Of a stretch of DNA of 64,000 nt, positions 12,106 to 43,368 are shown in pieces (the stretch's first letter is position 1; every line of letters starts with the position of its first letter). This stretch comes from an uncultured Candidatus Saccharibacteria bacterium (GTDB lineage: Bacteria > Patescibacteriota > Minisyncoccia > Phycocordibacterales > UBA918): NCBI GenBank assembly GCA_964552045.1, contig CAZKFF010000004.1:20368-84367 (forward strand). Direction: 5' to 3'. Both the position numbers and the translations under genes were made by a program. A model generated the notes under the pieces. It worked only from the letters and a program-made list of their open reading frames with translations, had not been told where the DNA came from and did no database searches.

Positions 12106-13065
12106 TTATTGCATCCGCCGATTTACCTTTCTCTGGCGTGCGGTATGAACGCCGAAGAGTAGGAGAGCGAGCAATGCAAGTATCGGAAGTATGACCGAAA
12201 CCTGGTGTGCCAATGAAAGTCCGAGGAATCCGAATCCGGCAATCTGCAGTGTTCCATACGGAAGAATATTGAGGTTCACTTCTCCCTCTTGTTTCACTTC
12301 ATCATCATTGAATATCTGATAACGCGCAATATAGGTGCCTGCCGGCAGACGCGTCGGCAGTTCGGCCACGATCTCTTCGGTTGCGTACGGAGCTACCTTC
12401 TCTATTTTTCCTTTGTTCCGGACGTCTTCAAGAAGCACATTGCCCGTAGCATCATATATCTTGAATGCAACCTTTGACGGAGCAACATCAATGTTACCAG
12501 TATTCTCAAGGAGCATACCGAACCTGATCTTTCCAGGGAAATACAGCCACGCGAACTTATGTCCTTCATTGAGATCAGATATGTTTATCTTGCGGATGCG
12601 GAAATCCTTGATCTCCTTGTCGATGACGCTGAGGTCGATATCAACCTGTGCACCAAGTGAAATGTTGACTGCGCCGGCCGAAACCTCATCATCAACTGCT
12701 CCTGTTTTGATACGGATCGCACCCGTGTAATTTTTGAACTCAGCATCTTCCGGCACCTTCACACGAATAGTCATGGGAACCTTCTGCTCACCGCGTGGCA
12801 GTTCGAACTCTGTGCCTTCCACGATCTCGATCCAGTCCAGTATCTCAGGAGCATCGACGACTACAGTTGCTTTCAGCGGCACGTTCGGATCTCCGCGGAC
12901 AAGAAGTATCTGCTGTTCATAGGTCGAGTTGCGGGTGAGGCTCGTGTTGCGTACGTATGGCGGGGTCACACCAAAACCAGCGAGGGCTAAATCGGCTCCA
13001 AGTATCACAAAGAGAAGTATTGCTATGCAGAACGATTTAGCAAAGTTCATTATGTATCCCGACAA
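12106..13065 (-). CDS. Cell-surface protein with signal peptide and a C-terminal TM anchor. Its fold is like the DUF916/DUF3324 proteins of Gram-positive WxL-type surface loci.
   Basis: 319 aa. The likely start is the internal MNFAKSF. C-terminal hydrophobic helix plus basic tail (ILPILALLALLLFGVHTARQRKVNRR). Architecture parallels 44668..45741. Confidence 0.45.
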   Translation of the reverse strand: MSGYIMNFAKSFCIAILLFVILGADLALAGFGVTPPYVRNTSLTRNSTYEQQILLVRGDPNVPLKATVVVDAPEILDWIEIVEGTEFELPRGEQKVPMTIRVKVPEDAEFKNYTGAIRIKTGAVDDEVSAGAVNISLGAQVDIDLSVIDKEIKDFRIRKINISDLNEGHKFAWLYFPGKIRFGMLLENTGNIDVAPSKVAFKIYDATGNVLLEDVRNKGKIEKVAPYATEEIVAELPTRLPAGTYIARYQIFNDDEVKQEGEVNLNILPYGTLQIAGFGFLGLSLAHQVSVILPILALLALLLFGVHTARQRKVNRRMQ

Positions 13066-13168: not shown

Positions 13169-15025
13169 CTACCACTGATTTGGATTGCTTACCGCAGCGT
13201 AGAATGTGTTTTCACCGGTGTATGACCCCGCAAGTGTGAGCGTGATCGGAACATGGATACCCCAGTAGGTGGTTCCTGTTGCCTGAGTACTGGTTGCCGT
13301 TGACTTGAATACATTCAAGTCAAGCCGCTTGTTTGTAGTAGATGAGAGTGTGTTGCCAGTTGCAGTTGCCGTACCGTATGACACTGTCGAAGTTGCATAC
13401 ACTTGGAAGCTCTCCGCAATGGTTGAAGTAGAGGAATTAGGACAGGTCACAGAGGTACTGTAGTTGATACACATTGATTCTCCCGTAAGCAGTTCGTCAA
13501 TACCCACATTTCCAGTCGCCCGTATGTCTGTTGTGGCAGAGAGCGGATCAGTCTGTTGCCCAGGCTCGAGTGAACCATACGGGATAGCGAGCGTATCGAG
13601 AGCCATAGACAGGAAGGCATTGAGATCTTGTCCAATCGCACTTTGGGTGAATACACTCACCGCACTGTCATCATCTATGGCAGAAACTGCTGCTCTCCAA
13701 TCTTCGCCGGCATAAAGCGAAGTCGAAGCCTGGTCGGTCGGGTCTGCGATGTACCACAGTGGGAATGTACACTCCCATGTCTGTGTGGTGTCCGTTGCAC
13801 CTCCACAATCGGAAGGTGTCGTTGTTGCGGCACATGAAAGATTCCAGGTTGTTGTCGCGACGGTGCTCGTATAACAATTGTTTGCATTGTATTCGCCTGA
13901 TGCATCACAGGAGGTCGTGCCTACACCCGAACGGTACACTGACAGTGCGTAATCTACGATCTCATCAGTTGCGGATGAGTTCTCGCAGCTATTATTGTCT
14001 GTTGCAACAAAGCTGAGTGTGAATCCGGTCGTCTCACCCGATTCCTGTGTAAGCGTAATATCTCCTCCATTATTGAGTGTGATTTGCGCGGCGTTTATAG
14101 AAGGAGCGGCATTGTCAACGGTGAGAACAGAGTCTGTGCCTTGCGTAGCTCCTGATGCCTCATGCCCGTGATTGTCGACAATGAAGCCAAAGGCTGCGTA
14201 GTTCTGGTCCTGGGTCGGGATTGGTATGACGTAGGTGGCTGTCGGGTCAGATGCAGACAAGGTTGAAGTCGCTAATGTGAGATCATCACAGGTATCTGTC
14301 GATGTGCTGAAGTTTGATGATGAGCAGACGATGAGCTGCACCGTGTCATTGGTCGGTACTGTGTCAGGGTCAGATGATGTCGCAGTAAAGGTAACGGTCG
14401 CGCCCGGAAGCACTGGGGAATCGTCCCAGAACGCGGTGAAGGTCGGACGACGGTTTACGTTGAATGGAGATGATGTCGTACCTGTTCCCTGTTTGAATGA
14501 TGCGTTACAGCGCGGATTGACCAGCACGGAGTCGCAGACCCAGGCGAACCAGTCATTTTGCTCGTTGAACGGAGCGACTTCTGTGGTGGTCGTTGCGGCA
14601 GTTGCCTGCGTACCGCTGATCGTCAGAGAAGAAACAGCCCATTGCAGCGATCCTCCACCACAGGTCGGCGCAGCTCCCGGGTTCGCAGTTGGCGCAGTTG
14701 ACCCGTCACAGATAAGCAGATAGTAGCTCTCCGCGTTCGAGTCTGTTGCAGTTGCGATCCACTGCACCGGTGATCCTGAATTAGTCGGTGTTGTTGTTGA
14801 AGATTCGGTCAGCTCCTGCGCATCCACAGTCCATTGTGGCGGTGTGTTGAGCACGGTCACTGATGTGGTCGCCTGGCTTTGGGCTTCCGCATGGTTCAGT
14901 TCCTGTGCGCCTAAGTTGAGGAAAAATGCTACCGCGAACACAAACACGCCCAAAAGCGCTGTTATCACAGTTATTTTCCCTGCCGTGTTTATATAGTGTG
15001 GCAGCTCTTTCATGTTGTACGACAT
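13169..15025 (-). CDS. Secreted Thr/Ser-rich protein whose C-terminal ~300 aa (from ~14113 down) is a Cys-containing domain homologous to the extreme C-terminus of the giant protein.
   Basis: 618 aa. Signal/TM (ITVITALLGVFVFAVAFFLNLGA). Alignable blocks with giant-protein residues ~6090-6350: YRSGVG..C...NNCY, Y.ADATD....Y.GE.W.AAV, YWGI..P...NP. Confidence 0.55.
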   Translation of the reverse strand: MSYNMKELPHYINTAGKITVITALLGVFVFAVAFFLNLGAQELNHAEAQSQATTSVTVLNTPPQWTVDAQELTESSTTTPTNSGSPVQWIATATDSNAESYYLLICDGSTAPTANPGAAPTCGGGSLQWAVSSLTISGTQATAATTTTEVAPFNEQNDWFAWVCDSVLVNPRCNASFKQGTGTTSSPFNVNRRPTFTAFWDDSPVLPGATVTFTATSSDPDTVPTNDTVQLIVCSSSNFSTSTDTCDDLTLATSTLSASDPTATYVIPIPTQDQNYAAFGFIVDNHGHEASGATQGTDSVLTVDNAAPSINAAQITLNNGGDITLTQESGETTGFTLSFVATDNNSCENSSATDEIVDYALSVYRSGVGTTSCDASGEYNANNCYTSTVATTTWNLSCAATTTPSDCGGATDTTQTWECTFPLWYIADPTDQASTSLYAGEDWRAAVSAIDDDSAVSVFTQSAIGQDLNAFLSMALDTLAIPYGSLEPGQQTDPLSATTDIRATGNVGIDELLTGESMCINYSTSVTCPNSSTSTIAESFQVYATSTVSYGTATATGNTLSSTTNKRLDLNVFKSTATSTQATGTTYWGIHVPITLTLAGSYTGENTFYAAVSNPNQW

Positions 15026-15088: not shown

Positions 15089-16297
15089 TTATTCATAGCG
15101 GATAGCATCAAGCGGATTGAGCGATGCGGCACGCCGTGCGGGGAAAATTCCGGTGAGGTAGCCCACTCCGGCTGAGAAAAGGGCGATAAATACCAGGAAA
15201 TTGAGCGGAAATGAGAAGAGAGTCACCGCCTGCCCGCCAAATTGTCCGGCGGCAAGATTGAGCATGAGGTTTATGATGATCCCGAGCGCTACCCCCATGA
15301 CGATCCCGGATACACCTCCGAGAAAGCCTACAATGATGGACTCTGAAACGAACAGCCACTTGATGTCCGACGGCGATGCACCAATGGTGCGCATGATGCC
15401 GATCTCCTTGGTTCGCTCCAACAGTGTAACGGTCATCGTATTGAACATGCCGATGGCGGACACAAGGAGTGCGATCCCTCCGAATGTTGCAAGGACCACC
15501 TGGACTCCCTGGAAGATCTTTGACGCCTGTTCAACCGTCTTAGAAAGCGCCGTCACGCGGTATCCCTCCTCGATAAGCTGATCTTCCACGAGCTGCAGGA
15601 ACTCATTGCTCTCAACACGGACCTGCACCCGCTCGAACTCCTCAATGCCAATATGACTGCGAAGCTCCGGCAGCATCATGAGCGCATTGAGAACGCCCTC
15701 CTCTTTAGTGATGCCGCGAACCGTGTATTCTTTGTCAATGAAAACCTCGTCCACCTCATCGGTGCCGTCTTCTGCCGGTACGAGTATCCTGAACTTCACT
15801 TTCTCACCAACAAAGGAAGCCGGATCGTCGATCCCGAAGAGCTTGAGCACCGCCGGGGAGAGCATAACACTACTGGTATCACCTGCATCCGCATCAGTGA
15901 ACACTTCGCCCTCTGTTGCGGTCACGCCCGCATAGCGGAGGTACGGCGGTTCGGCGCCTTGAACGAACACATTGCCAGTAAGACCCTTGTACGTCACCAA
16001 TGCCGGGAACCGCGCAAGCGGTGCTGCGTCCAGTACATGATCCATAGCCTCAAATTGCGCCACCGTCTCTTCAGTCAGCCGCAGGTTCTGGGCGCCGGTT
16101 GCCGAGACCCCGAGTGACAGAAGTGTTTCTCCGAACACGATCTGCTCGAGGATGATCTGCTGCAGTCCGAACCCAAGCCCGACGAGCACCACCACCGCAC
16201 CAGTGCCCACTCCCATGCCCAGGATAGTGAGCCACGTACGCATTGGGTTCGTTTTGAATGCTCTCGTGGAGAGCTGTGCCAAGTCCTGTAAACGCAT
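15089..16297 (-). CDS. ABC transporter permease, FtsX/MacB-LolE family.
   Basis: 402 aa. N-terminal TM, large periplasmic loop, C-terminal 3-TM FtsX-like bundle (…IGIMRTIGASPSDIKWLFVSESIIVGFLGG…). 4-nt overlap (ATGA) with the upstream ATPase. Confidence 0.8.
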   Translation of the reverse strand: MRLQDLAQLSTRAFKTNPMRTWLTILGMGVGTGAVVVLVGLGFGLQQIILEQIVFGETLLSLGVSATGAQNLRLTEETVAQFEAMDHVLDAAPLARFPALVTYKGLTGNVFVQGAEPPYLRYAGVTATEGEVFTDADAGDTSSVMLSPAVLKLFGIDDPASFVGEKVKFRILVPAEDGTDEVDEVFIDKEYTVRGITKEEGVLNALMMLPELRSHIGIEEFERVQVRVESNEFLQLVEDQLIEEGYRVTALSKTVEQASKIFQGVQVVLATFGGIALLVSAIGMFNTMTVTLLERTKEIGIMRTIGASPSDIKWLFVSESIIVGFLGGVSGIVMGVALGIIINLMLNLAAGQFGGQAVTLFSFPLNFLVFIALFSAGVGYLTGIFPARRAASLNPLDAIRYE

Positions 16298-16299
16298 AT

Positions 16300-17622
16300 C
16301 TAACTCTTATAACTGACATCGACGCCTTGCGCGATGATCTTTTCGAAATAACGCGTGATATCCTCCGCTTCATCGTAGGTGAGACCGAGTCCGCCTGAAC
16401 TGACCCCGACGCTGAGCTTCTCAAGGAATTCCTGCTCGCCGCTGACTCCAACCACACGGTCGGCAATAAGCTCAACCAGGTTCTCGTCCTGCTTTTTCGA
16501 GAGCTTCATGTGGTGAATGCGGAGCAGATGATCGCGCAGACGTTCGGCGAGCTTGTGCTGATCAAAGAATGCATGCGCATTCTCAAACTGCTTGCGAAAT
16601 CTGCGAATATCATCTGCCTGCGAGAGCAGCTTGTCAGCCGTATGTACGATCCTTCGCGCATCCTTTTCAGGAATACCGACTCCGCCCCGGTCGTACGCAA
16701 GCACGAGCATCTTCGTGACAGCATCCTTCTCTACCCTTCCAGAGATAAAATATTGCATCGCTGTCTCAAGCCGCTCGAGCTGGCTGAAGGTGTAGTCCTG
16801 TGTCACATAGTTGACCAGACTCTTGACCCGGAGCGATTCAATGGAGTCATAGGGATAGAGACGTGCGAGCTGTTCGAGCTCGGTCACAATGGTCTCACCT
16901 TCTTTCACCGGCTTTATCTGCTTGCGCTGCGGATTGACCACTTCACGGACAATGCGCCCATCCTTGAGGTAATACACGCGGTGCGCATAGCTTAAGTGCG
17001 CTGCATTGTGCGACACCATGATGATGGTACGCTTGTCGAACGTATTGATCTCGTCAATCTTGTCCATAACCTGCTGTGTAGAAACAGAGTCAAGATTTCC
17101 GGTAGGTTCATCCGCGAGCAGGATTTTTGGATCATTGACCATGCTCCGCGCAACCGATACTCGCTGTTGCTGGCCTCCTGAAAGCATGGACGGAATCTTA
17201 TGGGATACGTGGCCGACGCCAAAACGTTCAAGCAGAGCCTGTGCACGCCGCTCGCGCGTCGGTCTGTCCGCATTGGCGAAGATCATGGGTAGCGCCACAT
17301 TATCAAGCACGGTAAGCGAACCGATGAGGTTGAACGATTGGAATATGATACCCATCACATACCGCTGGAAGTAGATACGGTCTTCAATAGGTATCTGGTA
17401 TATGTCCTCTCCGCCGATGAGCATTGTGCCGCCGCCAGGAGGGAGCGATCCCTGGATGGCATACATGAGTGTGGACTTGCCGGAACCGGACGCCCCGAAG
17501 AGGATGATGTACTCACCCTCATATATGTCGGTGCTTGCGTTAGAGAGCGCTTTGAATTCGTTCGATTTCCCTTTGTTGTAGGTGATATCGAGATTACGAC
17601 AAATAATAAGAGGCTTTGCCAT
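16300..17622 (-). CDS. ABC transporter ATP-binding protein (MacB/LolD-like) with an unusual ~200-aa C-terminal extension.
   Basis: Walker A GASGSGKSTLMYAI, ABC signature LSGGQQQRVSVARSM, Walker B ILLADEPTGNLD. The extra C-terminal helical domain has no obvious family. Confidence 0.85.
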   Translation of the reverse strand: MAKPLIICRNLDITYNKGKSNEFKALSNASTDIYEGEYIILFGASGSGKSTLMYAIQGSLPPGGGTMLIGGEDIYQIPIEDRIYFQRYVMGIIFQSFNLIGSLTVLDNVALPMIFANADRPTRERRAQALLERFGVGHVSHKIPSMLSGGQQQRVSVARSMVNDPKILLADEPTGNLDSVSTQQVMDKIDEINTFDKRTIIMVSHNAAHLSYAHRVYYLKDGRIVREVVNPQRKQIKPVKEGETIVTELEQLARLYPYDSIESLRVKSLVNYVTQDYTFSQLERLETAMQYFISGRVEKDAVTKMLVLAYDRGGVGIPEKDARRIVHTADKLLSQADDIRRFRKQFENAHAFFDQHKLAERLRDHLLRIHHMKLSKKQDENLVELIADRVVGVSGEQEFLEKLSVGVSSGGLGLTYDEAEDITRYFEKIIAQGVDVSYKS

Positions 17623-17796
17623 AGAAACGGGTTGCCTTAATTAGAACACGAAACAAGAAAAGAAATATAAGTAGTATCCACACATACGATTTCGCAGCAT
17701 ATGTCGTGCAATGGAACTGAGCCTCGCTTCCCTTGTGTAAAAGACATCTGAACATGTAGACTCCCATTCGACAGACAATAAGCGCTGCGGGGGCGC

Positions 17797-19314
17797 TTAT
17801 TGTCCTCTGATATTCTTGACCCAGCCGAATGTTGATTCAAAGTTCTCGAGGATGAGGTCAATGATGTTCTTTTCCTGGATCGGCGTGAATAAGACGAAGT
17901 TCTCTGACTGCACCTCATTGCCTGCCTCGTCCGCACAATTGAGCCAGAACTGATACACCGTCGCCGAGGCGAAGTCCACAATGACCTCAACATGGCGTTC
18001 GGAATAGCTTATGGTCTCAGGTTCTATGATGGTCGGCTCAACTCCCCCAGCCACACCCTCACGGTAAGTCATCGTACAGAATGCCGGCTCATCGGTCTTC
18101 CACTCAACAATGCTCTGCACGCGCGATTCTCCTCCCGGGAACAGCGTGGATTCATTGGTCACGTTGCTGATGATCGGCGGTGCCGTGTCTTTGACGGTGA
18201 TAAAGGTGATCGGCTGGCTCCTCACCCGGTCTCCGCCGCCGTTCTCTGCAATGACAAAGGCGACATACCGCGTACCGAGGGTAAGGTCGCTCAGCCGCAT
18301 CTGGTGCGTGGTGGCAAGCGTCGGCCGTCCTTTGGAGTTTTGTGCACCGGTAGTGAGGTCTTGGTATTCGATGAGTGCCTTGGAAGGCACGGTGGTGTCC
18401 CACGCGAGCGTGGCTGCATTCTCTTCGACCTTCACGATGCGAAGATTGCGGATCTCCGGAAGCGATGCCTTGGTCTTGAAGGTGTAATCACGGCTTTCGC
18501 CGGTGATGCCGAAGGAATCCGTTGAGACGACTTTGAAGTGGTATTCAGTGAACGATTCAAGTCCGATGATACGCACCTCATGGTCAGTGACGAGACCGTC
18601 GGTACTTGACTGGGAGTAGACGTAGCTTCCAGCGGTATATTCATCGGTCGGCGAGAAAAACACTGTTGAGTCTGACTCGCGGTCAGTGGTCCAGCGGACG
18701 ATCGCAGAGGTCGTTTCGGGAATGACGGTTGGAGGCCCGACAATAGTGAGGTCTTCGGTGATGCCCTGGATCGCCTTGACCACTTCATTGAGTATCTCCT
18801 GCAGCTGCTGCGGGTCGGTGATCTCCTGCACCTGCTGCTTTATCTCCTCGACAGTAGTCTCGCTTGACTGTCCTTCACCAGCCTGGGAACCCTGACCCTG
18901 ACCCTGCGCTTCCGCCTGGCCGGAACCCTCAGCACGCGGCGTGCCGGTTGTCTGCACTTTATAATCGGCGGAAATACCCTGGTTACCATCCTCATCTGCG
19001 GAAACAACGCGGAAATAGTACACGCGACCGGGATCGAGCTCGTCGAGTGTGATGCTGTGTACGGTCTTGTCGACCGCAGGGTCGCGGACGATGCCGTAGT
19101 CCTCCTGCAGACCGTAGTTGATGAGTGAATCCGATTCCTCATCGGTCTCCCAGGTGACCGTCACGGTTGTGTCAGAGACATCACCGATCTGGACATTGGA
19201 TATCTCTGGCGCATCAGTATCAGACTGGGCAAAAGCGGCCGGTACTGAGAGCAGCTGGAGCAAAAGCGCCAGGGAGAGAAGTAATGAGGAACTGCGCATG
19301 GTTCTGTTAATCAT
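17797..19314 (-). CDS. Secreted protein with three fibronectin type III-like domains, first gene of the ABC operon.
   Basis: 505 aa. Signal peptide (…LSVPAAFAQSD). FN3-like blocks such as ISNVQIGDVSDTTVTVTWETDEESDSLINYG...YYFRVVSADEDGN occur three times. Confidence 0.6.
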   Translation of the reverse strand: MINRTMRSSSLLLSLALLLQLLSVPAAFAQSDTDAPEISNVQIGDVSDTTVTVTWETDEESDSLINYGLQEDYGIVRDPAVDKTVHSITLDELDPGRVYYFRVVSADEDGNQGISADYKVQTTGTPRAEGSGQAEAQGQGQGSQAGEGQSSETTVEEIKQQVQEITDPQQLQEILNEVVKAIQGITEDLTIVGPPTVIPETTSAIVRWTTDRESDSTVFFSPTDEYTAGSYVYSQSSTDGLVTDHEVRIIGLESFTEYHFKVVSTDSFGITGESRDYTFKTKASLPEIRNLRIVKVEENAATLAWDTTVPSKALIEYQDLTTGAQNSKGRPTLATTHQMRLSDLTLGTRYVAFVIAENGGGDRVRSQPITFITVKDTAPPIISNVTNESTLFPGGESRVQSIVEWKTDEPAFCTMTYREGVAGGVEPTIIEPETISYSERHVEVIVDFASATVYQFWLNCADEAGNEVQSENFVLFTPIQEKNIIDLILENFESTFGWVKNIRGQ

Positions 19315-19322: not shown

Positions 19323-22300
19323 TTAATCGCCTATTGCGTAGAAGATGTTAGTTCCCTGGTGCGGATTGCTTGCCACGCCGTACGGTATCTCGATGCCCCA
19401 GTAGACGACGTCAGTAACCGGGCTTGAGCTTGATGTCGGCTTAGTGAGATCAACCTCAAGGTCGGTAGCTGTGGTCGAGGATAGTGCGCTGCAAGATGTA
19501 CATGCAGTGTAGGTGAATGTCGAGGTTGCAAACAACTGTTCAGACGCGGGGATGAACGAGGATCCGCCGTCTGTGAGGTCGGTTCCCTCAAGTTCGATAT
19601 CGATCGGCACATTGCCGAGGTTCTGTACGGTCGTGGTCGGATTGTACGAACCGGTTGTCGAGGATACTGCAAGAGGCCCGTAATTGATCGCTGCGTCAAC
19701 ATCAAGCGCATGAAGTGTGAGGAGCTCGATCTGCGTAGTGGTCGGCGTTGAGCCGATGTCGATGCCTCCTCCCTGGTCGGAGACCTCGACCGCAGCAAGC
19801 CACTCTTCACCTTCATAGGCGCTGCCTGCGTCGGTTGCATCAGCATGGAAGTAGAAATCAGCGCTGCAGGAGATCGAACAGCTGTTTCCGGAACAGCCTG
19901 ACAGTTCACATAAAGGTGCAGCAGATACGTAACAGTTGTTATTGTCCGGCGTACATGCCGCACCCACGCCGCTGCGGTACATTGTTGCGGTTGCATGTGT
20001 GAGATCGTCAAAGCCGTTGAGGTCGGTTACCGTACCCGTGGTATATACCGTTGTGGTCGATCCCGGCACGAGAGCGATGGCGGCACCCCCATTGAGCGAC
20101 ACATTCGTGACGATCGGATCGAATCGGAGTTCGAGCTCTGCAACGCTCAGATATGTATCAAGCGGATCGCTTGCATCAGTCACCCGCAGACAGTATGAAG
20201 GCGCTGAGGCATTGATGGTCGGCGTGAGGGCATATTCCAGTTCGGTATATTCGTCCTGGTCAATGGTGAGTGCAGCAGTGGTGTTTGACGGATCTTCAAC
20301 GACCTTACCGGAAGTGAACTGTCCATCTACCTCAAAGAGGAGATCAGTGGTAGCTCCATTGTCGGTGAGATGGCTCGATGCCTGCATACACAAAGGCGAA
20401 CTGCCGCACGAGCTCTGTGGAGGCACAATCGCATAGCTTGCGCTGCTGACCGCCTCACAACTCGGTGCTGCGCCTTTTGTCGCATATTCAATGTCGAATG
20501 TCTGGCCGGTGATCTGCAGTCCGGAATTCTCGACAGCCACACGCAATCGGGCAATATCCCCGTGCGTGTAGGCATATGATTCGTCGAGGTCAGCAGCCCA
20601 GCTTGCTCCCCCGCTCACCTGTTTGTCGCCGAAGTAGACTGTCGGTTCGGTATCGACGTGCGGCCGCGCACTATAATTGTCCCATCCACCGTTCTGGAAC
20701 CAGAAGGTGAAGCCGATGCCGCCCGAGGTGTATGTATTGTCGCTTGCGGATGCCGTCGCTGCCGTAGCTCCATCTTTTGAGAGCGTCACATCCATGTCCC
20801 CGCCAGTCTGCCAGTCGATCTCAACCTCGTACCATCCCGAACCTAAGGTCGGGAAGTCAACCGTACTTGAGGCAAGAACGGTTCCCGACGAATCAGTGTT
20901 CTGTGCGTTCTCCACGATCGACATGCGATCGACGCCGAACTGTTCAAGACAGATGGCGTAGTTCTGATTGCTGGTTACGGGCGATTGCACACCGAAGAGT
21001 GTACAGACCTCATCGCCGTTGCCTGCGTCGGTATCTACATACTGCATATACCGGATGATCTGTCCCTGGCTCACCGTAAGTCCAGTGTCCGCAATACCGT
21101 CAGTGGCTTTATCGCTCTCATGTGCGGTCGCATCAAGTCCGAACGAGCCGCCATAGGCAAAGCTGCTGCCGACATTAAATAGGCTTGTATCGCCGCTGTA
21201 CTCGGTTATGTTTCCGTCCTCGAAGTCGTCTGCGGCGATGAATGCGTCTGCACTCGAGCTTGTGGACGAAGCAGTTGCATTGTCGAAGTACATGTAAAGC
21301 GTTGTTATATCTTCAGCAGCAAGGCTCGGCACCTGCACCCATATGTCCGCGTCGGCACTTGCGGTGTACCGCTCAATGAAGTGCGGGATGGTGGTTGTTC
21401 CGCTTGCATCAGTGAAGCGGAGATCATCAAAGTCTCCCTGCATCGCGGCATCATAGGCAACAGACAATTTGACTGCTGCATCGGTATAGGTTGCTGCGTC
21501 AGGATTCTCCAACCGGACCCGCTTGCGCGCACCCCATGATGCATTGAACCACTCGCTGTCCGGCACATCGACGCCGCCGTCATCGTGGCGCCAGCGGTAG
21601 TGCGTCTGCTGGGTGAGGAGACACGAACTGTCGTTCCATCTGATGGAACCGCAGGCGGTCGCGCCATCATCATCGTAATCCTCACCGGCAAGATTACCCG
21701 TGTGGCTGACGAACGCCCAGGCATTGGTCGTCGTGCCGATGAGCGTGACGTTCGTACCCGTGATCGCCGTGGTCGTTGCAAAACGGTTTCCAGAAATGAC
21801 CTTCGACGCATTCGCATCAAGGGTCGCGGATGACAGCGTGATAAGGCTTCCGCCGCTGACTGCAAGTTCAAAGTCTCCCTGCGACAACGAAGTAATGAAC
21901 GGTGTGCCGGAGAACAGCAGCCCTTCGGCATTGAGATCCCGGTACCGATAATAGAGTGCGTTGAATGTGCCGTCAGACACCGCGAACGCATAGGTACCGC
22001 TTCCCTGGTTCTGGACGGTTGTGCTGTTGCCGGAAGCGCCGATCATGTAAAGCGTGCCCCCATCCACGGTTGTGGTTGCATTGCCGGCAATAGAGACTGT
22101 CACTGCCCGCTCGATACCCGCCAGACTGGCGCCGTCAAAGTCGGTGGCATAACTCCAGTATTCAGTTGTCGTGCTGACATGGAAATCGCCGTATATGGTG
22201 AGCGCTCCGTCACTTCCTCCATGATCCTGCGAATACAGCGAAGCTGACGGTTGCACTGTAGTCGTATCCGCGCTTGAGTTCCATACGCGGATATCAGTAT

Positions 22301-25300
22301 CGTCACCCACGATCAACGTCCCGTACTGATCTCCGTCAGAAAGTTTCGTATTTATCGAATAGCCTGCCCCCGCATCAAGGATGAGTGTCGCTCCGCTCCA
22401 GGTAGTTGCACCGCCGCCGACATTGTTCGTAAAGACATTACCGACATAAAGACGGGTGCCGCTCTGCTGCGTGAACGATGACGCCAGTGACAGTGAGAAG
22501 TTGTGCGTAGCGGTCGCATTGCCAGTTATGGCCCATCCGCCGCCGGCGTTTGCCAGAACTACATTGTAGAAATTGCTGTTGCCCGGATCTATGGTCTCGC
22601 CGGCATCAGCTGAATTGAAGAGCACCGTGCCGGTCGCACTGTCGAACAATCCGCCTGACGCATCGAATGAGCCTCCGATCGCAAGCGTGCTCGAAGCGAA
22701 CAGAACTGATCCCTGCGCGATACGCAGATCGTCGAGAAGCGAGAGGCTCTCATCCTCCATAGTAAATGTGCCGGCGCCGCTGAATATGACTGCATACAGA
22801 TCAGAACTCGAAGCAAGCAGGGATGCGCCGGTGTCATTGGTGAAATACAGGTCTGCAGTATTGTGGACGATATCCCCTCCGGTATTTCTGAAGTCGCCAC
22901 CGACAGCGAACGCGCCTGACGGCAGCGTGAGCGTTCCCGCCTGGACCGTGACCGATCCGGTTGTGGTCGCATTGGCGTCAGTCATGGTCCATGCGCCGCC
23001 CACCCCGTTGAAGATGAGCTCCTCAAGATTCGAACCGCCGGCGCGGAGAATATTGCCGGTTGTTGCCGCGTCGAACACAAGCGTGCTGCCGTTGATCACA
23101 AATGAACCACCGTTGTTGCTGAACGAACCGCTCACGGTGGTTGTGCCGGTCGGGAACGTAAGCACGCCGTCTGTAATGAAGATGTTCTGTACATCGAACG
23201 TGGCATCGGTTATGCTCCAGCTGCCGCTTCCGCTGAAGACCGTGTTGTAGAACGATTCACTATTGGCGTCAATTGTGCGCGCAGCACCAGTTGTCGTGAA
23301 CGTTGTTGTCGACAAACCGGCATCGAAGGAGGCATTACTGCCGAGGATGAACGAACCGCCGATGCTGTGCTCCTGCGCTCCAGAGAAGCTGACTATTGCA
23401 TTGGCATAGGCTTCGAATGTCCCGTCGTATGCAGCGCCTGCGCCGCCTCCCTGAAGGGTAATATTCCCGTCAGGTTCGAATTCCTTTCCGCTCCACACGA
23501 TGAGCTTTCTGTTCGCAGGCAGCACAAGCGTATCAGGAGAACCGTCAATGGCCGTAAATGGGATATCAGCATCATCTGAAGAATCCCACACTGCCATGTC
23601 GGCAATGTTCAGCGGATCAGTGCCCTCGTGACGTACGATCACGCGGTTCTCATATATATGCATATTGCCGATGTTCGAGACCGGATCCTCAGTGACCGTC
23701 GCACCCTTCTGTGTTTCACCATCAATGTACGCGACAATGGAATCACCAGGACTATATGTGACCCCGCTGACGCTGTACGCGCCTGTTGTTGCATTACAGC
23801 TTGCAGCGTATGACGTCAGTCCGGCAACGCGTACGGTGATATTGTTTGTTGTTCCATCGCAGACTCCTGATACGGTCGTTCCCTCGTCACTGTACACATT
23901 TCCCGCGATCGTAATATTCGCCGCACTGTTATCCCATACGATATAACCGGGGTCACCGTCCGGGTCAACGTCATGCTCTTCGCCGTCGAGCGAGCCGGTA
24001 TGGTTCGTGAATCGCCACGAGCTCACCGACGTGCCGGTTGCGGTGACATTGAACGCGCTGATGCCGGTGGTGGTACTGAAGTTGTTGTTGGTGAACGTCT
24101 GCGCCGGATTGATATCAATGACCGTTCCCCCTACAGTGATACCACTGCCTCCTGCTTGTGCAATCTCGAAATCTCCGTGAGAAAGTGTCACCACGTGCGG
24201 TGCGCCGCTGAATGTAAGGCCTGCGCTGTTGATATCCTCTACGGCATAGTAACTCCAGGAGGTTGAGGCACTTCCTCCGATCAGAAGACTGTACGTTCCG
24301 CTTCCCTGGTTCTCGATGGACGTCGACGCTGAAGCGCTGCCGAGCACCTGCAACCCGCCGGAGAGAAGGTTCATACCTGCACCGCTTTCGAACCGCACAT
24401 GCGCCTGGCGCTCTGTTCCTCCACCGAGCACTGCACCGTCGAAGTCTGTCGCGTAGCTCCAGTGGTCAGTGCCGCCGTTGCCGCCGTAATTTCCATATAT
24501 AAAGAGGTCGCCGTCTACTCCTGCGTGATCCTGTGAATACAGCGATCCTGACGCATCGACAACGTACGCAGAAGCAGAGGAATTCCACATACGAATGTCG
24601 GTATTCGTCCCTACAGCGAAGTTCTCATACGTATCGCTGATGGTCTTTGCATTTATTTCATAATTGGTACCGCTTACAAAGCGGAGCGTGCTTCCTGTCC
24701 AGGTGGTTGCCGCTCCGCCGAGCGCATTGGTGAATGAGCCGCCGAGGGCAAGACTCTGTCCGCTTGCAAGCGTGAACGCTCCCGTGCTTGAAGCAAGCAT
24801 GAAGGCTCCTGTTGTTGTTGCATGTTCGCTTATAGTGAAGTTGCCGCCGCCATTGACGGTGAGGTTGCCGAAAGGAGAAGTTCCCGCAGCGATGTTTATT
24901 GCTCCTGAGCCGTTGAATGTCACTGTTCCATTGCTGCTCGTGTACGTACCGTCATTGTCCCAGCTGCCTGCAACAGTGAACAAACCGGAATTGCTGCCGA
25001 TGAGCGTACCGTTGCTGCGGATGACAACGTCTCCATTGACGCCAAGCGCAGTGTCATGAGTGTCAAAAGTTGCCGCGGTAGCGCTCTCTCCACCAACGGT
25101 AAGGTCATGGAGCACCAGAATACCCAGCCCGGTTGCGGTATAGGTCGGCGCACCCGCACCCGCATTGAGATCAAGATCGTAATACGTTGTGGAAAGGAGA
25201 TTGGTCGCGCTGCCCCCACTGTACCGCACAGTACTCTGGTCCTCGAGGAAGGTACCGTTCTCAACAAAGACCGTGCCGGTTCCCGACAGGTCGAAGCGTG

Positions 25301-28300
25301 AAGCTCCGGCATCGAGATAGTGCCCCACAGCGATGAAAAGCGTTCCGCCTATGGTTGTGGTGGCTGTACCCGCTGGCGTGGTGGTGCCAATTGTTGTTCC
25401 ATTGCCGAGCTGGAGGTTATACAGGGTCCATCCCTGCGATCCGCCGAGCGTATTCGACTGTTCGAGCGTGGTCGTGCCGCCCCCAAGCGAGACCAGCCCT
25501 TCGCCGAAGAACGAACCATTCGGTATGGATATGTCACCGGTGCCGGTTACCGTACCGGTCGCTACCTCGATGTCGTCAAGGGCTGCGATATCGCCGTTGA
25601 TGTTCCAGCCGCCGCCGATTCCGCTGAAGCGGAGCTGATTGAATGTTGCTGTCTCGCCCAAAGCGACATCGATCGCCTTGCCGGTTGTGGTTGCCGACAT
25701 GAGGACGCTCGAGGAGGCTGCACTGAATACTGCTCCGGCACTTTGCGTAAATGTGCCGCCGATGGTGTATGTGGTCGTGCCGTTGCCGATGAATGAAGCA
25801 CCGTTTGCAAGATAGAGCGATCCGTCATAGTCAGTGCCAGTTCCGCCGCTTTGGAGCGTCACAGTACCCCCGGGAGTGAATGTTGTTGAGGCCCATACGA
25901 AGAGCGCATTGTCCGGTGCAACAGTGAGGAGCGGTTCAGTTCCTGTCGCCACAGTGAAGATAATATCGCTGTCGAACGTGCTGTCGTGCACCATGTCAGC
26001 GATGGTCATAGACGCAGTATCCTCGTGCCGCGTGATAACGCGATGTGCATAGAGATCAAGGTCACCAATGTCCTCTGTAGGGGTCTTCGTCACCGTCACT
26101 GCCGTTTCTCCGCCCGATGCTCCATTGAGGAACACCGTGACCGTCGGATCGCCGACGATCGCCACTCCGCTCATACTCCACGAACCGTCAACATTGCTGC
26201 ACGAGGTGTCATAGGTGGATCCATCCTCAACTACGATGCGGACAGGCGTTGACACTCCATCGCACGTGCCACCGGTAAGCGGAGTGGCGCCATTGTCTGC
26301 ATATACCGTTCCTGAGAGCGTGAGCGCAACCGAACTGTCATCCCACCGGATCGAACCTGGATCACCGGTGTCATCATCGAATGCTTCACCGTCAAAATCT
26401 CCGGATGTCTGCCTGAACCACCAGTATGATGTCGGCGAGCCGCTTGCAGAAACGTTGTATGGTATGAACGCATTTACAGACTCTTCACTTCCCCATGTTC
26501 CGTGTGAAGGTTCTGTTGCAACGATCTTTCGTATGAGCGCGAAATCCCAGTCGTTTGAAACAGTTTCCGAAAGACCACCTGTATTGAGTGCGAAATATCC
26601 TGTACGTCCGGTGCGCGCCCACGAATTCCACGTTCCATCGTCAAACCGGCCCAAGACAGATGTGCCATCATGATAGATCTCTTCGGTATACCATGTGCCT
26701 AGAGTCCACGGTTCAGAATGTGTCGGTCCCCATGCGACAAGGTCGTCGAGGAATGCCCGCGGAGTGAAACTTGAGAAGTTATGGAGAAGATAGTTATACC
26801 CCTGCCCGTTTGCTGTACTTGTTTTGATGCTCAAGCCTACACGCTGATCGTTGTTCGCACCGACTCTTGGGCGGAAACGTGCCCGGAACGCAAGGTTATT
26901 CCCTGTCTCGCCGGAACCTCCTTCAGACGCAATGATCTTTGCAGGATCTTTGGCAGTTGTCGTGGCAGTCAGTATGCCATTCGATTGAGAGTAACTGTCA
27001 ATGTTGAATGTCTGCCACTTGCTCGTGTCGAGTGAAGCACCCGAAAAGTCATCAAAGAACGTAAATGTCGCCTCACCGTCACTTTGGCTGCTTGCACTGT
27101 TGTTGCCATAGTACACATAAATGGTCGCATCAGAGCTCGAAAGATCTGCCGATACGTTAACCCACACAACAGCCTGATCGCCGTCGGTCTGGCTTTCAAT
27201 CCAATACGGAAGCAGCGTCTGTCCATCATCGGAAGTGAACCGCAGATCGCTGAAATCAGCACTGCCCTTGCTGCCAAGATACACATCATCACCGCTGTCT
27301 GTGCCAGAACCATAGTGTATGGTCATCATGATCGGGTAATCAGTTCCTGCTCCGCTTGCGCTCTGTACAACATGGCTTTTACGGTAATCCCAAGGGTCAA
27401 GCCAAGGAGATGACGAAGCTGCTGAACCGAAACGCACATTGAGTATCTGCAGTGCAGGATTAGCATCAATAACGCTCGCCGCAACACTTATAGAGCTTGC
27501 CGGCACAGTGAGATCAAAGTCACCATTTGCCAGAGAAGTGATCGAAGGAGTCCCCAAAAAGGCAAAGCCCGAAGCATCCGTATTCCGAACCTGATAATGA
27601 TCCGCATTGACTGTGCCTCCGGAAACGGTCAGTGCATAGGAGCCGCTTCCCTGGTTGTGTATGGTGGTTGTCGCGCTTGCTGTGCCGAGTATGTTAAGTG
27701 AGCCTCCACTGAACGTCGCACTTGAACCCGCTGCAAAAGCAATATCCGCCTGGCGTTCAGACCCCCCAGCGAGTGATGTTCCGTCGAAATCAGTGGCATA
27801 GCTCCAATGCTCAGTACCGGATGCCCGTTCATACGATCCCCAAATGTAAAGATCGCCATCAACGCCGCTATGGTCCTGCGAATACAGTGATCCGTCAACC
27901 GTATAGGCCGTTGATGAAGAGTTCCACATGCTCACGTGAGTTGTTGAAGCCACACGGAGAGTGCCATAGCCATCAGCACCTGCAGTTTTTGTATTGAGCG
28001 CAAAACTTCCGCCGCCAAGCGCGAGTGTGCTTCCCGTCCAGGTGGTCGCGCTTCCTCCTGCACTATTAGTGAACGTACCGCTAACAGAGAGCGTCTGGCC
28101 CGAAGCAAGTGTGAATACTCCCGCCGATGCGAGTGTAAAATCGTTCGTCGTGGTGGCGTTGCCGTTGATGCTCCAGCCGCCTGTGCCGCTATTGAATGTC
28201 ACGTTGTAGAGCGGAGATGACCCGAGCACAATGGTTTCGCCAGCATCATTCGAATTGAAGAGGACCGTGCCGCTGTTATGCACAAGCGTTGCGCTGTTGG

Positions 28301-31300
28301 AGAGCGAACCCCCCAGGGTCAAAGTACCGCTCGGCAGAGTGACCGTACCCGCAGTTACCGTGAGACTGCCCTGCGCTGTCACCGATGCGTCGACAAACGA
28401 CCAGCTGCCGCTTCCCGTAAAGGCAAGACTGTTGAATGGAGCATTCGTATCAATGGAATGAGTGCCGCTCCCGGTAAGGCGGACCGTACCGTTATTGTGA
28501 GCGAACGTACCGCCGGTATTGAGGAAAGAACCGCCGACTGCAAGAGAAGCGCTCGGCAGCGTCACCGTCCCCTGCACAATGCGGAACTCGTTTGATGTCG
28601 TGGCATGAGCTTCAGTGAACGACCATGAACCGCTCCCCTGGAATCGGACGTCGTACAGCGCATTGGTGAAGGTACCCCCATTGAACGTCAGCGTTTCGGC
28701 GGTGCTCGAATTAAAGAGTACCGATCCGTTATTATGCGCAAAGCTTCCCCCTGAGTTGGTGAATGAGCCGGCAATCGTCGTTGTACCGGTCGGGAACGTG
28801 ACCGTACCTGTTGCTATAGAAAGGTCGTTGTTGATGCCGAGTGTACTTTCGGTGAACGACCATGAACCGCCAGAACCGTTGAAGATAAGGTTATAGAAAT
28901 TATCGCCGCCTGCGGTGACGATCTGTCCGGGCTGCGTGCCTGAAAACGTTACATCACCGTTGCGCGGATTGAAGGTGTTGTTGTTGACCCAGTTACCATA
29001 CACCACAATATCGCGGTTGGATGTCGAAAGATCGAATGTGTCATCGCTACCAATGGTTACAGAAGACGCTTCAACATTACTTCCGAGCTGTACCACCTTA
29101 CTGACGCCATTGACAACCGCATAGCCGATATTCTGTTTTGGCGTGCTGTTGTCACTCCATGTTGCGATGCCAGTGCCGTCAAAAGTGGTCGTTCCAACAC
29201 CTGTCCAGAGACCGTTCGCCTGTGTGGTCACATTGCCCGCGACAGTGATCGTTTCGCTTCCGCGCGCAAGCGTGCCGTATGCGACAGTGAGCGCATTATC
29301 AACGTCAAGGCTGTCTGCGATCTCCCATTCTGATGTACCGCTTCCCTCACCAAACGTAACAGTGTAGAAATCGAGCGTACCGTCAGCGTCAGTAAGCGTG
29401 TACGGCAATCCGGAAGTGGAAGACGCAAAGGATTCACTGGCGCTTACCGCATAGAATGTACCCGGACTTGAGATGTTGCGGTACTCCGCATCAAGCCAGT
29501 CAGCGGTACGTGAGACGCTCGAAAGTCGCACCTCATCCATTGTACCGTCGAACGAACGCGCAACCCCGAAGGAATCCCATCCGAAGTCAAGATTGTTGAT
29601 GGTCGAGAGCGTATGCGTCTGGACATTGCTGCCTGAGGTCACTCCGCCTTGTGCATGTGCATACAACGTCGCCTGCGTCGGTTCGACCACGAGCGATGCC
29701 ATGTACCATTCATTGGTTGGATAGACCGCGCCTCCGGCAAAGTCCCACGCCGTCGCCGCAAGGTTCTCCCAGTGGTAGCCGATGCGGCTGGTATCCGTAC
29801 ACGCACCCGCGTTCATACCGTTCACACCGGTGCCGCGGGAGAACATGACGCCATCGCAGGCACCCTGCGTGCCGTCGGCGTCAAGGAAGATCGACCAGGT
29901 CGAATTCAAAAGCGACTGGCTGAAATTGGTCTCAATGCGTTCATCAACTCCGTCAACCTCGGCTGCGCCTCCTGCGATGCCGGCAACCCGGTCGCCTGCT
30001 TCCATGTTCACTGCCGTACCAGATGAATTGCCGGTACTATCGGCATATTGCGGCGCGCTGGCGCTCGGGCTCTCATCGAAGTGATAGACCGCCTCATAGT
30101 CGTTGTTCCATACATTCTCTGAGCCGTTGGTGGCATTGGAAGCATAATCGCTTGCACTGCTGTTGCCGTAATAGATATAAAATGTGGTGTCGCCTGCAGA
30201 AGAAAGGCTGTCGGCCTGGAAGTATATCTCGCCGGTCTGCGCGCCGGTATCAATGGACACGATCTCGCGCGGCAGTTCGGTCTGTCCATCTGCGGTAGTA
30301 ATGCGTATGTCTCCCCCGTTGGTATTGACATTACTAAAGAACGTGCTGTCGAGGTCAGACAGATCAACGTACACAGGAAAATCGGTCACCGATGTATCTA
30401 TCTGCGAGGACTGTATTGTCAGCGGCAGGCGGTGCGACCATTGTGCATCATACCAGGGGACCGAACTCTGCGTGCTCGTTGCGGTAAAGATGACCGTCGA
30501 TGTAGCCATATTCGTGGTTGCATTGTTCTCCCACGAACCACCCACACGCAGTGTGTTGCCGTTGGCCGAAACTGTTCCGTTGTTCTCAAAACTGAAGGTA
30601 GTTGCATTGCCACCGGTGCCAGGCTGGTAGGTATTGCCTGCCTTGATATACAGCTCAGTTTCGGCGCATCCGGAAGAGGCGCAGACGCTGAGGTCGTTGC
30701 TCGCATTCACGTCGAAGAAGAGGTCTTCGTCATTGGTAAGGTCATAGAGACCCAGAGATGCGTTACTCACCGTTGCTGCGTCATCCGAGCCAACAACCAG
30801 ATGTCCGGCATACAGATCGAGGCCGCTCATATTGCCGACCCCGTCATACGCGGTTACCGCAACCGCTTCCGAGCTGTCGGATGCGCCGTCAATGAAGACT
30901 GTGACAACATCACCCTGTGCGACATTCACATTGGCGATGGACCACGTTCCATTCGATATCGTTCCCGTTTTCCCTGTTTGGAGGACGCCATTAACGGCGA
31001 TCGCAACATTTCCTGAAGCGACATTGGTCGCTTCATCGTACTGCAGCGCGGTTCCCGACACGGTGATCCCCGCAGCCCAGGTGATGGTCCAGTCTGAGAA
31101 TACCGGACAGGTGCCGATATTGCAGATGAGGTTCGCTACCGGCCGGATCTGGCCGTATGTGGATGCCGGCAGCACACCGGAGAGATCGATCGGACCGGTG
31201 CTTGTCCCGCTGGAATTGCCCGGGAGGAGCGAATCAGGGACAAGCTCCCATGAATCGCCGTCGTAGTATTCGATCTGGTAGAGAATATCAGAGCCATCAA

Positions 31301-42561: not shown

Positions 42562-43368
42562 TCACAAAACGCACCTGAATCCGATTGCGACTCCGGAAGC
42601 GGTCGGGAGCGTCTGAGCATGCACTGCATAGATGCCGGCATCGAGTCCGCTGCCGTAGAATCCACCGCGAAGCACGCCGAACGCTCCATCATTTGATGAC
42701 CACAGATAATCCTGATAGAACAATTCCGACGGAGAGCTACCGGTAAGGACTGCCATGCCAGAAGCATCGACCTGGGTGACATAGCCTGAGTGTGGCAACT
42801 CTCTTCCTGCATACATGCCCTGGAGCACGTCATCCGTAGTCCACTCCCACACATTTCCAATGCTGTCATATGCACCCACAGCTGAAATACATTCCTCATG
42901 GGTGCCGGTTGGTGAGGCGCCGCTTGCATCGATGTTACATGTGTGCGCATCATCAGGAGTGCCTACCGAAGAGAGATACCACTCATCGCTGCGAGGCAGC
43001 CGCTTCCCTGCGCGCATGCAGGCGGTCAGAGCTTGCTCACGGGTTATATACCGCCACGCGTCGGCGTCCGGCTTCGACTCCGCCTCGCATTGTGCGGTAT
43101 CCATATTCTCTCTGGTCTGCAACTCGTTTTGGGGATTCTTCTGCGGACACGAAGCCGCAGCGGACGCCTCGTACATGTCAACACACCGGTATGTGATTGC
43201 CATGGGCACTTCGACCATACCAGCAGGGCATGCACTGTCGTCTCCGGCTTTGATCACCTGACCCAACAGCGTCGAACGTGAACCCTGCAGCGTGTCGGCC
43301 GCATCGATCCCGAGCGCGGTTATGAGAACAGCGCCACAGATAACCGCCCCGACTTTGAGCAATTTCAT
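42562..43368 (-). CDS. Secreted FGE-sulfatase (SUMF1/formylglycine-generating-enzyme-like) domain protein, copy 1.
   Basis: 268 aa. Signal peptide. C-terminal family signature GVLRGGFYGSGLDAGIYAVH...GFRCVL plus conserved Cys/Trp-rich core (…CPQ.PQNE..T.EN...A.CE......W..I....A...C..AGKRLP...EWY...G). Confidence 0.7.
   Translation of the reverse strand: MKLLKVGAVICGAVLITALGIDAADTLQGSRSTLLGQVIKAGDDSACPAGMVEVPMAITYRCVDMYEASAAASCPQKNPQNELQTRENMDTAQCEAESKPDADAWRYITREQALTACMRAGKRLPRSDEWYLSSVGTPDDAHTCNIDASGASPTGTHEECISAVGAYDSIGNVWEWTTDDVLQGMYAGRELPHSGYVTQVDASGMAVLTGSSPSELFYQDYLWSSNDGAFGVLRGGFYGSGLDAGIYAVHAQTLPTASGVAIGFRCVL

Follow-up and report, generated by a model that had tools for sequence, protein, structure and literature searches.

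The DNA analyzed here, referred to below as the window, is a 64,000-nt stretch of contig CAZKFF010000004.1 from an uncultured Candidatus Saccharibacteria bacterium. The minus strand of the window carries an open reading frame (ORF) of 6,350 codons (19323..38375), counted from a mechanically assigned TTG start, which encodes a giant secreted protein. The likely start of this protein is the ATG at 38348, which is followed by a signal peptide (..ALLLLLVIAIGGLSIDRAYSQA). DUF2341 repeats and an Ig_Rha78A_N domain are found in the giant protein, the C-terminus of which is formed by what we refer to as the client domain. Directly downstream of the giant gene, on the same strand, is the gene for a 505-aa fibronectin-III protein (17797..19314), which is syntenic in Paceibacteria-type loci. 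This is followed, again on the minus strand, by a MacB-type ABC transporter (15089..17622), comprising an ABC ATPase (16300..17622) and an FtsX/MacB_PCD permease (15089..16297), and by the gene for a 618-aa secreted protein (13169..15025). The 618-aa protein consists of an N-terminal signal or anchor sequence, two Cys-containing Ig-like repeats and a second copy of the client domain, and the transporter is thereby placed between two client genes. Its N-terminal half is conserved at other loci (E 1e-41 to 1e-167). The last gene of the series, also on the minus strand (12106..13065; likely ATG at 13050, 314 aa), encodes a small membrane protein, a divergent WxLIP-like protein that we term the anchor.

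When the 618-aa protein was compared by BLASTP with the C-terminal 699 aa encoded by the giant ORF, a single collinear alignment was obtained, in which residues 354–610 of the 618-aa protein paired with residues 472–696 of the giant segment (31% identity over 258 columns, E = 3e-20). The Smith–Waterman score of the two tails was 276, as compared with 53.6 ± 9.3 for shuffled sequences (n = 500, maximum 89; z = 23.9), and the maximum against equal-length tiles from elsewhere in the giant protein, with their similarly Thr/Ser-rich composition, was 55–72. These data indicate that the shared tail proposed in an earlier, sequence-only reading of this DNA is real, and the blocks on which that proposal was based (YRSGVG..C..NNCY, ADPTD..W..AAV and YWGI..P) all fell within the BLASTP alignment. 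The start of the domain is marked by “..PxVxxVxLNGG..”, approximately 40 residues before YRSGVG, and the domain therefore measures approximately 265–270 aa in the giant protein (19323..20123, minus strand; ~266 aa plus the stop codon, as judged from BLASTP, alignments, AlphaFold2 and the profile search) and ~310 aa in the 618-aa protein (13169..14122, minus strand), so that the boundaries first proposed were essentially right. The copy in the 618-aa protein carries extra Cys-containing insertions, which are typical of a “618-type” subfamily, and an orthologue of it was found in every Paceibacteria-type locus. Six-frame translation of the window revealed these two copies of the domain only. The invariant residues are C62, N67, C69 and Y70 (the CxxxxNNCY loop), T102 and D103 (ADPTD), W113, D121, I151, Y153, G175, N176, K233, W247 (YWGI), P252 and G262. 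Both tails finish in a β-strand (..GTNIFYAIGD and ..FYAAVSNPNQW). An AlphaFold2 model of the client domain showed two β-sandwich lobes (pLDDT 93.3); the model was complete and confident on its own, with no obvious strand missing, and hhalign detected no sequence relationship between the N-lobe and the C-lobe.

The sequence-only reading had regarded the domain as private to these two proteins, which proved to be wrong: a profile search with the client domain matched 2,628 cluster representatives (clusters at 50% identity) at E ≤ 1e-3 and 1,139 at E ≤ 1e-30. The matched proteins were 263–7,696 aa in length, and every match bearing an informative organism name came from the Candidate Phyla Radiation (CPR). 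The ~270-aa tail is a large, unnamed CPR domain family. Pfam searches with one and then 27 client-domain members at E ≤ 10 returned scattered weak matches only and no matching family, and a PDB sequence search with the client domain returned no match, leaving no solved structure as a specific relative. The description of the domain as a conserved module that terminates secreted proteins of otherwise different kinds also held; among the 150 best representatives, it lay within 12 aa of the C-terminus in 142, and in 5 more it was split by an insertion and was still C-terminal. Non-terminal homologs, which had been named in advance as evidence against such a module, were rare exceptions (two or three of the 150 representatives; P0151, P0161 and a tandem copy in P0196).

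A C-terminal module common to unrelated secreted proteins is likewise found in the T9SS CTD, LPXTG/sortase, PEP-CTERM/exosortase and SLH systems. The client domain differs from these sorting domains in being several times larger and in having neither a cleavage motif nor a hydrophobic or basic tail, and the SLH and other sorting-domain models of Pfam did not match it. A short sorting signal of the LPXTG, PEP-CTERM or T9SS type was rejected, because the tail is a folded two-lobe domain of ~270 aa with no processing enzyme alongside. Thus, of the sorting, anchoring or assembly role first suggested for the domain, the short sorting signal was discarded, and a role in anchoring or assembly was retained on the strength of the C-terminal module and of a membrane-anchored partner gene.

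This partner emerged from a comparison of gene order in a set of 24 loci, labeled Paceibacteria/Parcubacteria, Kaiserbacteria, Nomurabacteria, Dojkabacteria, Shapirobacteria and Magasanikbacteria. In all of the loci holding both kinds of gene (23/23), two or three client genes were followed by one WxLIP-like anchor gene, the start of which lay −45 to +99 nt from the end of the last client gene. One distinct locus (L001–L003, with the domain-only protein P0076) had no anchor gene nearby, and no client–anchor (Rosetta-stone) fusions were observed among 224 family proteins. Co-occurrence with a processing enzyme had been put forward as a check; no such enzyme was conserved next to the client genes in the gene-order loci, and the WxLIP-like anchor protein was found there instead. 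The MacB-type transporter genes were kept in Paceibacteria-type loci only and are therefore accessory, outside the core module. In distant lineages, the client–anchor pair was kept, and the intervening ABC transporter and fn3 genes were lost. These observations bear on the possibility that the MacB-type ABC transporter recognizes the client domain as a C-terminal signal for export, comparable to type 1 signals or T9SS CTDs. Such a function would agree with the C-terminal position of the domain and with the location of the ABC ATPase and FtsX/MacB permease genes between two client genes in approximately 15 loci; however, it appears hardly credible, because each of the two client proteins carries a Sec-type signal sequence at its N-terminus, because the loci of Dojkabacteria, DTUPAT2, Shapirobacteria and Magasanikbacteria, as well as L004, retain the client–anchor pair without the transporter, and because known secretion signals do not resemble a folded domain of 270 aa in which cysteines are conserved.

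The anchor is composed of a signal peptide, two Ig-like β-sandwich domains, a C-terminal transmembrane helix and a basic tail. Its AlphaFold model, which was built on an alignment of sequences at least 68% identical, placed strands at residues 41–123 and 138–267 and a helix at 285–318, and the membrane helix and Arg/Lys tail were present in all 19 aligned anchor homologs. The anchor fold resembled that of the solved EfmWxLIP1 (9i1y), and WxLIP outscored every listed pilus chaperone as a match to it. WxLIP (DUF916/DUF3324) is encoded together with small WxL and large WxL proteins in the WxL gene clusters (Csc clusters) of Lactobacillales and Bacillales (PMC1534035, PMC9772566, PMC10599100). The WxLIP motif NQIDKxxxYFDLK is absent from the anchor, in which the invariant N-terminal motif GFG[VI]TPPYVRNTSLTRNSTYEQQILLVR occupies the same place, and neither PF06030 nor PF11797 matched the window protein at E ≤ 1 or its 18 homologs at E ≤ 10. 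Direct comparison of the anchor with Firmicute WxLIP by hhalign gave 96–97%, a match that we set aside because most of it came from the signal peptide and the membrane helix; when the ectodomains only were compared, the value fell to 65% with small profiles and to 11% with profiles of 116 and 58 sequences. For this reason, we relied instead on a bridge through a second CPR family that is positive for PF06030.

This second family is represented in the window by a 357-aa anchor-type protein (44668..45741, minus strand), which matched WxLIP_PGBD (PF06030) with 32.4 bits (cut-off, 27.3). PF06030 matched 18 of the 19 family members, namely the window protein and 17 of its 18 relatives, and the family aligned with the anchor family over 209 ectodomain columns (hhalign, 98.7%, E = 1.6e-16). 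By this sequence comparison, the anchor is a homolog of WxLIP, in a transitive sense only. Upstream of the PF06030-positive gene lies a gene for a secreted protein (45940..47073, minus strand) that ends in ..EAADDYSTTLTYIATPTF, resembling the second WxL motif, and a gene of this type was followed by a 44668..45741-like gene in 32 of 40 loci. The secreted protein is a probable client of the second anchor. Comparison of this protein and 50 relatives with WxL and with the client domain gave E values of 0.045–0.09; the aligned motifs (IPFGxL, GFxVTV and DDYxxxLTY) are suggestive, but the similarity is not significant.

The gene layout is also reminiscent of WxL clusters. A cluster of this kind is defined by one WxLIP and at least two WxL proteins, in which the WxL domain is invariably found at the C-terminus (PMC9772566, PMC10599100). 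In Firmicute plasmid clusters, a gene for a large protein is followed by one to three WxL genes and, last, by that for WxLIP. The CPR loci share with these clusters a β-rich C-terminal domain on secreted proteins, at least two clients per cluster with the anchor gene last, and the architecture of the anchor (~320 aa, versus 337–365 aa for WxLIP; PMC10599100). They also share the occurrence of domain-only and multi-domain forms, corresponding to “small WxL” and “large WxL”; proteins consisting of a signal peptide and the client domain only were P0063, P0068–70, P0073 and P0076. The differences are that the client domain measures ~270 aa and has two lobes, as opposed to 160–190 aa for WxL, that the CPR cluster includes no small LPXTG protein, and that the hosts are CPR bacteria instead of Firmicutes, with large clients exceeding 7,000 aa. 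The WxL/WxLIP cluster of Firmicutes, which is the closest analog, went unnamed in the sequence-only reading, and among the papers searched, we found none linking WxL or WxLIP with Patescibacteria.

The client domain itself was rejected as a WxL domain by motifs, Pfam model, profile comparison and fold. Both Trp-x-Leu motifs (DxRG..GWxL, and YxxxLTWxL near the end) are absent from the client-domain alignment, whereas real WxL sequences, aligned for comparison, carry both. The client pattern consists of W113 in the N-lobe and, close to the C-terminus, one invariant Trp within YWG[ILWM]xVP, with the last strand reading G(T)NxFxA. The Pfam WxL model did not match any of the 27 client-domain members at E ≤ 10, and hhalign of the client domain against 13 small WxL proteins, whole or domain-trimmed, gave probabilities of 0.1–0.2% (E 0.4–0.7); comparisons with trimmed lobes and in low-mact and global modes were all non-significant. 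The client model was not scored as similar in fold to the solved WxL chain (9i25_A). Thus, it is the anchor and the gene layout that carry the analogy with WxL clusters.

Considering that the domain is encoded beside a membrane-anchored relative of WxLIP, it most likely docks proteins onto the cell surface, and the interpretation that we favor, on balance, is a WxL-cluster-like system for surface display in CPR bacteria, to which the C-terminal module would contribute the client (docking) domain. According to this proposal, the giant and 618-aa proteins would be exported by Sec via their N-terminal signal sequences, and the last domain to emerge would be the self-contained two-lobe β-sandwich. 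The small type-I membrane protein from the end of the operon would then hold the client domain through a non-covalent contact with its own ectodomain, probably by β-strand addition with the invariant, poorly ordered N-terminal strand of the anchor, and the extended N-terminal regions, with their DUF2341, LamG-like and Ig-like repeats, would be kept at the cell surface, facing outwards. We infer the physical binding of client to anchor, and likewise the strand-addition mode and the role in display or adhesion. Residues 29–57 form the most conserved stretch of the anchor, and the segment modeled with the lowest confidence, residues 23–39, overlaps part of it. The corresponding element of WxLIP is predicted to gain order by pairing with a WxL strand (PMC10599100), and by analogy the conserved, low-confidence segment of the anchor is a possible binding element.

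A different function, in which the client domain is a wall- or glycan-binding module (for the cell's own peptidoglycan, an S-layer or a host glycan) and the neighboring membrane protein has a separate role, seems unlikely to us. WxL domains were first described as peptidoglycan binders (PMC9772566), and in the client domain a ligand or Ca2+ could be bound by the invariant acidic and aromatic cluster (ADPTD, W113 and D121) and by the CxxxxNNCY loop. Weak Pfam matches to Glyco_hydro_123_N_2 were obtained with 3 of the 27 members, but these were generic Ig-like matches over ~100 aa at 8–17% identity, and wall or glycan binding leaves unexplained both the adjacency to a WxLIP-like gene in 23/23 loci and the client-to-anchor ratio of at least 2:1. 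Wall contact and anchor binding could also be compatible, as has been proposed for WxL.

The two Ig-like domains of the anchor belong to the PapD/MSP fold class, and binding by strand addition is plausible, features shared with chaperone–usher pili. If the client were a polymerizing pilin-like module, the two-Ig partner would be a membrane-tethered PapD-like chaperone or assembly platform, and a fiber of domain-only subunits would bear the giant protein. The tandem domain-only genes at L004 are in keeping with this model, which we nevertheless consider quite improbable. CPR cells lack both an outer membrane and an usher, no domain-only gene is present in the window, and the client, which terminates very large proteins, is modeled with confidence as a complete two-lobe fold. 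Furthermore, WxLIP is the better match to the partner than any listed pilus chaperone and shares its architecture, and a stable membrane anchor is ill-suited to a chaperone that must recycle.

Returning to docking onto a WxLIP-like anchor, one tentative extension of this interpretation, which we hold to be possible though doubtful, is that WxLIP-type anchors are an old modular display device of Firmicutes and CPR bacteria and that the CPR recruited an unrelated two-lobe client. The client domain would then represent a new protein–protein docking fold rather than a diverged WxL domain, joined to its partner by strand addition of a new kind, and the client–anchor pair would be a conserved mount for the multi-thousand-residue proteins that contact the hosts of these epibionts. 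In either case, the WxL/WxLIP-type complex, described as nearly confined to Lactobacillales and Bacillales, would extend to distant bacteria, in which the client domain is a different one. The lifestyle of CPR (Patescibacteria) bacteria is one of attachment to other cells, and the docking pair offers a concrete hypothesis of binding for the display and holding of their giant surface proteins. The present results define a new domain family, absent from Pfam and lacking a relative of known structure, that comprises about 2,600 clusters (50% identity), together with a simple rule: at least two proteins ending in the client domain, then one small membrane-anchored WxLIP-like protein. The domain also flags the true 3′ end of giant genes, which are usually fragmented in metagenome assemblies.

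The proposed docking has a parallel in the cohesin–dockerin system, in which a terminal module docks non-covalently onto a surface-anchored scaffold. Dockerin is a Ca2+-binding helical module of ~60 aa. The folds and sizes are unrelated to those of the client and anchor, and the client domain (27 members) matched neither family in Pfam. Cohesin and dockerin proteins are themselves encoded in the window, as is a sortase (53050..53709), which belongs to a separate SpaA-like pilin cluster 34 kb away.

In the giant ORF (19323..38375, minus strand, 6,350 codons) and the 618-aa ORF (13169..15025, minus strand), a single collinear alignment was found at the C-termini (258 columns, 31% identity, E = 3e-20). 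The two tails gave a Smith-Waterman score of 276, whereas 500 shuffles gave 53.6 ± 9.3 (z = 23.9) and comparisons with other Thr/Ser-rich stretches of the giant protein never exceeded 72. These results confirmed the common tail proposed in the sequence-only reading, the coordinates of which were essentially right, and withstood the shuffling control that it had called for. A six-frame phmmer scan of the window detected only these two copies of the domain, hereafter the client domain. Both client proteins have Sec-type N-termini. Translation of the giant protein probably begins further downstream than the automatically assigned TTG at 38375, the likelier start being an ATG at 38348 (MRFFSKK..), after which comes a stretch that resembles a signal peptide and ends in ..AYSQA (38346..38375, minus strand). 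In its N-terminal half (14123..15025, minus strand), the 618-aa protein contains two Cys-containing repeats of ~120 aa each (..YYLLICD.. and ..QLIVCSS..). This half, for which no Pfam match was found, is conserved along with the client domain in all loci with 618-like genes (L007-L030).

The domain had been called private, which proved wrong. A word-indexed search with the tail of the giant protein returned 77 proteins, mostly fragments ending at contig edges, and all organism-named matches carried a Candidatus label (Kaiserbacteria, Parcubacteria, Saccharibacteria or Woesebacteria). When a profile of 27 sequences was searched against 1.84 billion cluster representatives, 2,628 matches were obtained at E ≤ 1e-3 and 1,139 at E ≤ 1e-30. 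The claim that the domain is terminal held for most of the best 150 of the 2,628 matches (protein length, 263 to 7,696 aa): the domain ended within 12 residues of the C-terminus in 142, and in 5 others it was interrupted by a large insertion, yet was still protein-terminal. One protein (P0196) carried a tandem copy, and two were true non-terminal exceptions, namely P0151 (signal peptide, client domain, then a DUF2341/LamG-like region) and P0161 (client domain, then Kelch-like repeats). These three could be real rearrangements or assembly chimeras. Several family members of 285-316 aa consist of a signal peptide and the client domain only. Among the invariant positions are a CxxxxNNCY loop, ADPTD, two Trp, a GN turn and one Lys.

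The 618-aa gene is followed directly by a gene (12106..13065, minus strand) for a small membrane-anchored protein, the anchor. A homologue of this protein (E = 2e-42) is encoded in L004, an unrelated metagenome contig, where its gene comes after two domain-only genes in tandem. A survey in which one genome per species was scanned yielded 25 further loci. In 23 of the 23 loci with both genes, the spacing between the last domain-bearing ORF and the start of the anchor ORF ranged from an overlap of 45 nt to a gap of 99 nt, and the sole distinct locus without an anchor was that of P0076 (L001-L003). We place high confidence in the family, the position of the domain and its linkage to the anchor. 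Where enough downstream DNA was available, loci labelled Paceibacteria, Parcubacteria, Kaiserbacteria and Nomurabacteria, together with several auto-labelled Saccharibacteria, showed the order giant (domain), fibronectin-III protein, ABC ATPase, FtsX/MacB permease, 618-like (domain), anchor. In the window, the MacB-type transporter and a 505-aa fibronectin-III protein occupy 15089..19314 (minus strand) between the two client genes, and the order of these genes is strictly conserved in the Paceibacteria-type loci. Dojkabacteria, DTUPAT2, Shapirobacteria and Magasanikbacteria loci comprise a giant (domain), one or two mid-size domain proteins or a domain-only gene, and the anchor, without the ABC transporter; the fibronectin-III gene is likewise missing from the Dojkabacteria, Shapirobacteria and Magasanikbacteria loci, and both are missing from L004. 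The transporter is thus dispensable for the client-anchor module, which, like the Sec-type N-termini of both clients, speaks against the domain being an export signal for the ABC transporter.

The anchor comprises a signal peptide, an invariant N-terminal motif, two beta-sandwich domains, a C-terminal membrane helix and an Arg/Lys tail, and belongs to a family of at least 1,306 members without Pfam annotation. Its full-length profile matched Firmicute WxLIP with a probability of 96-97% (E about 1e-9). Since this value fell without the signal peptide and membrane helix, to 65% (E = 6e-5) with small profiles and 11% (E = 0.003) with larger ones, the direct link is only suggestive; matched domains gave E = 0.004 (D1-D1) and 0.017 (D2-D2), versus 0.26-0.35 for mismatched ones. 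The window encodes another protein built like the anchor (44668..45741, minus strand), which matches Pfam WxLIP_PGBD (PF06030; 32.4 bits; cut-off, 27.3). Of the 19 proteins in the alignment of its family, 18 match PF06030. Because this family aligns to the anchor family (98.7%, E = 1.6e-16, 209 columns wholly within the ectodomains), profile comparison identifies the anchor as a divergent member of the WxLIP superfamily. Anchor homologues in DTUPAT2 (L026:14255-15661; same ORF in Dojkabacteria L027) and Shapirobacteria (L028:12605-13981) are ~460 aa long, with an additional C-terminal region past the first membrane helix. Matches to bacterial SH3 domains (SH3_3, E = 6.5e-9) in two proteins of the scanned anchor set hint that this extension could bind the wall.

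The layout of these loci matches that of WxL clusters, known from Lactobacillales and Bacillales, in which small WxL proteins are domain-only, large ones always carry the domain C-terminally, and a WxLIP is present (PMC9772566, PMC10599100). Intact clusters taken from Firmicute plasmids had the WxL genes first and the WxLIP last. A WxLIP combines two Ig-like domains, DUF916 and DUF3324, with a membrane helix at the C-terminus; it measures 337-365 aa in the clusters analysed, with one 181-aa outlier, and strand addition by WxLIP is predicted to complete the sandwich of WxL (PMC10599100). The client domain itself failed each of the WxL tests applied: it has no dual Trp-x-Leu motifs, no match to the Pfam WxL model and no profile-profile signal, and 9i25_A was absent among the structural matches listed. 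The 27 members gave no Pfam family match, and no PDB match was found by sequence. The AlphaFold2 model, built with the 27-sequence alignment, is all-beta with two sandwich lobes (pLDDT 93.3, pTM 0.83), and Foldseek against 350,542 PDB chains retrieved two-Ig-domain proteins such as RbmA (E = 2e-4, TM 0.24). Nor is it a sorting signal, having no motif-plus-tail ending and no processing enzyme conserved beside the client genes; the sortase encoded in the window is part of another cluster, one of SpaA-like pilins.

We propose that the clients would be exported via Sec and that their C-terminal two-lobe domain would dock non-covalently on the WxLIP-like protein, one anchor type serving two or three clients whose long N-terminal regions would project from the cell. 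Less probably, the domain might bind the wall or a glycan directly, or form a pilus-like polymer with a chaperone-like partner. We consider physical docking on the anchor moderately probable. The anchor's invariant N-terminal stretch (residues 29-57) partly overlaps the least confident model segment (residues 23-39) and resembles the WxLIP element predicted to order upon WxL binding; because of this parallel, strand addition is the favoured, but unproven, mode of binding. Anchors of this type and the logic of the cluster were known before; the unnamed client domain is new, as is the lineage for a WxL-type system, and the clients are unusually large. Our literature search found no paper connecting WxL or WxLIP with Patescibacteria.

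At 44668..47073 (minus strand) lies another client-anchor pair, of a more canonical kind. The secreted protein encoded at 45940..47073 (roughly 370 aa) ends in ..EAADDYSTTLTYIATPTF, resembling WxL motif 2 except for a Tyr in place of Trp, though its similarity to WxL was not significant, and is followed by the 357-aa PF06030-type protein at 44668..45741. The pair is kept in 32 of 40 metagenome loci with room downstream. In L060, L070, L071, L081 and L090, a client-domain gene and anchor lie 1.3-1.7 kb upstream of the 45940..47073 relative, and since no second PF06030-type anchor follows it, a single anchor may in some genomes serve both client types. The cluster is flanked by proteins with cohesin domains (6400..8160 and 38454..40004) and others with dockerin domains (4951..5721, 10957..12102 and 40597..42507), all on the minus strand; the region therefore encodes a second surface assembly, of the cohesin-dockerin type. 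A Gram-positive-type sortase pilus cluster occupies 53050..62022 (minus strand), with the sortase gene at 53050..53709, SpaA-like/prealbumin-fold proteins at 53781..54920 and 60709..62022, and a 1,128-aa DUF11 protein at 54965..58351. Two adjoining ~267-aa proteins with FGE-sulfatase (formylglycine-generating-enzyme-like) domains are encoded at 42562..44269 (minus strand), in the interval that separates the second anchor gene from a dockerin protein gene.
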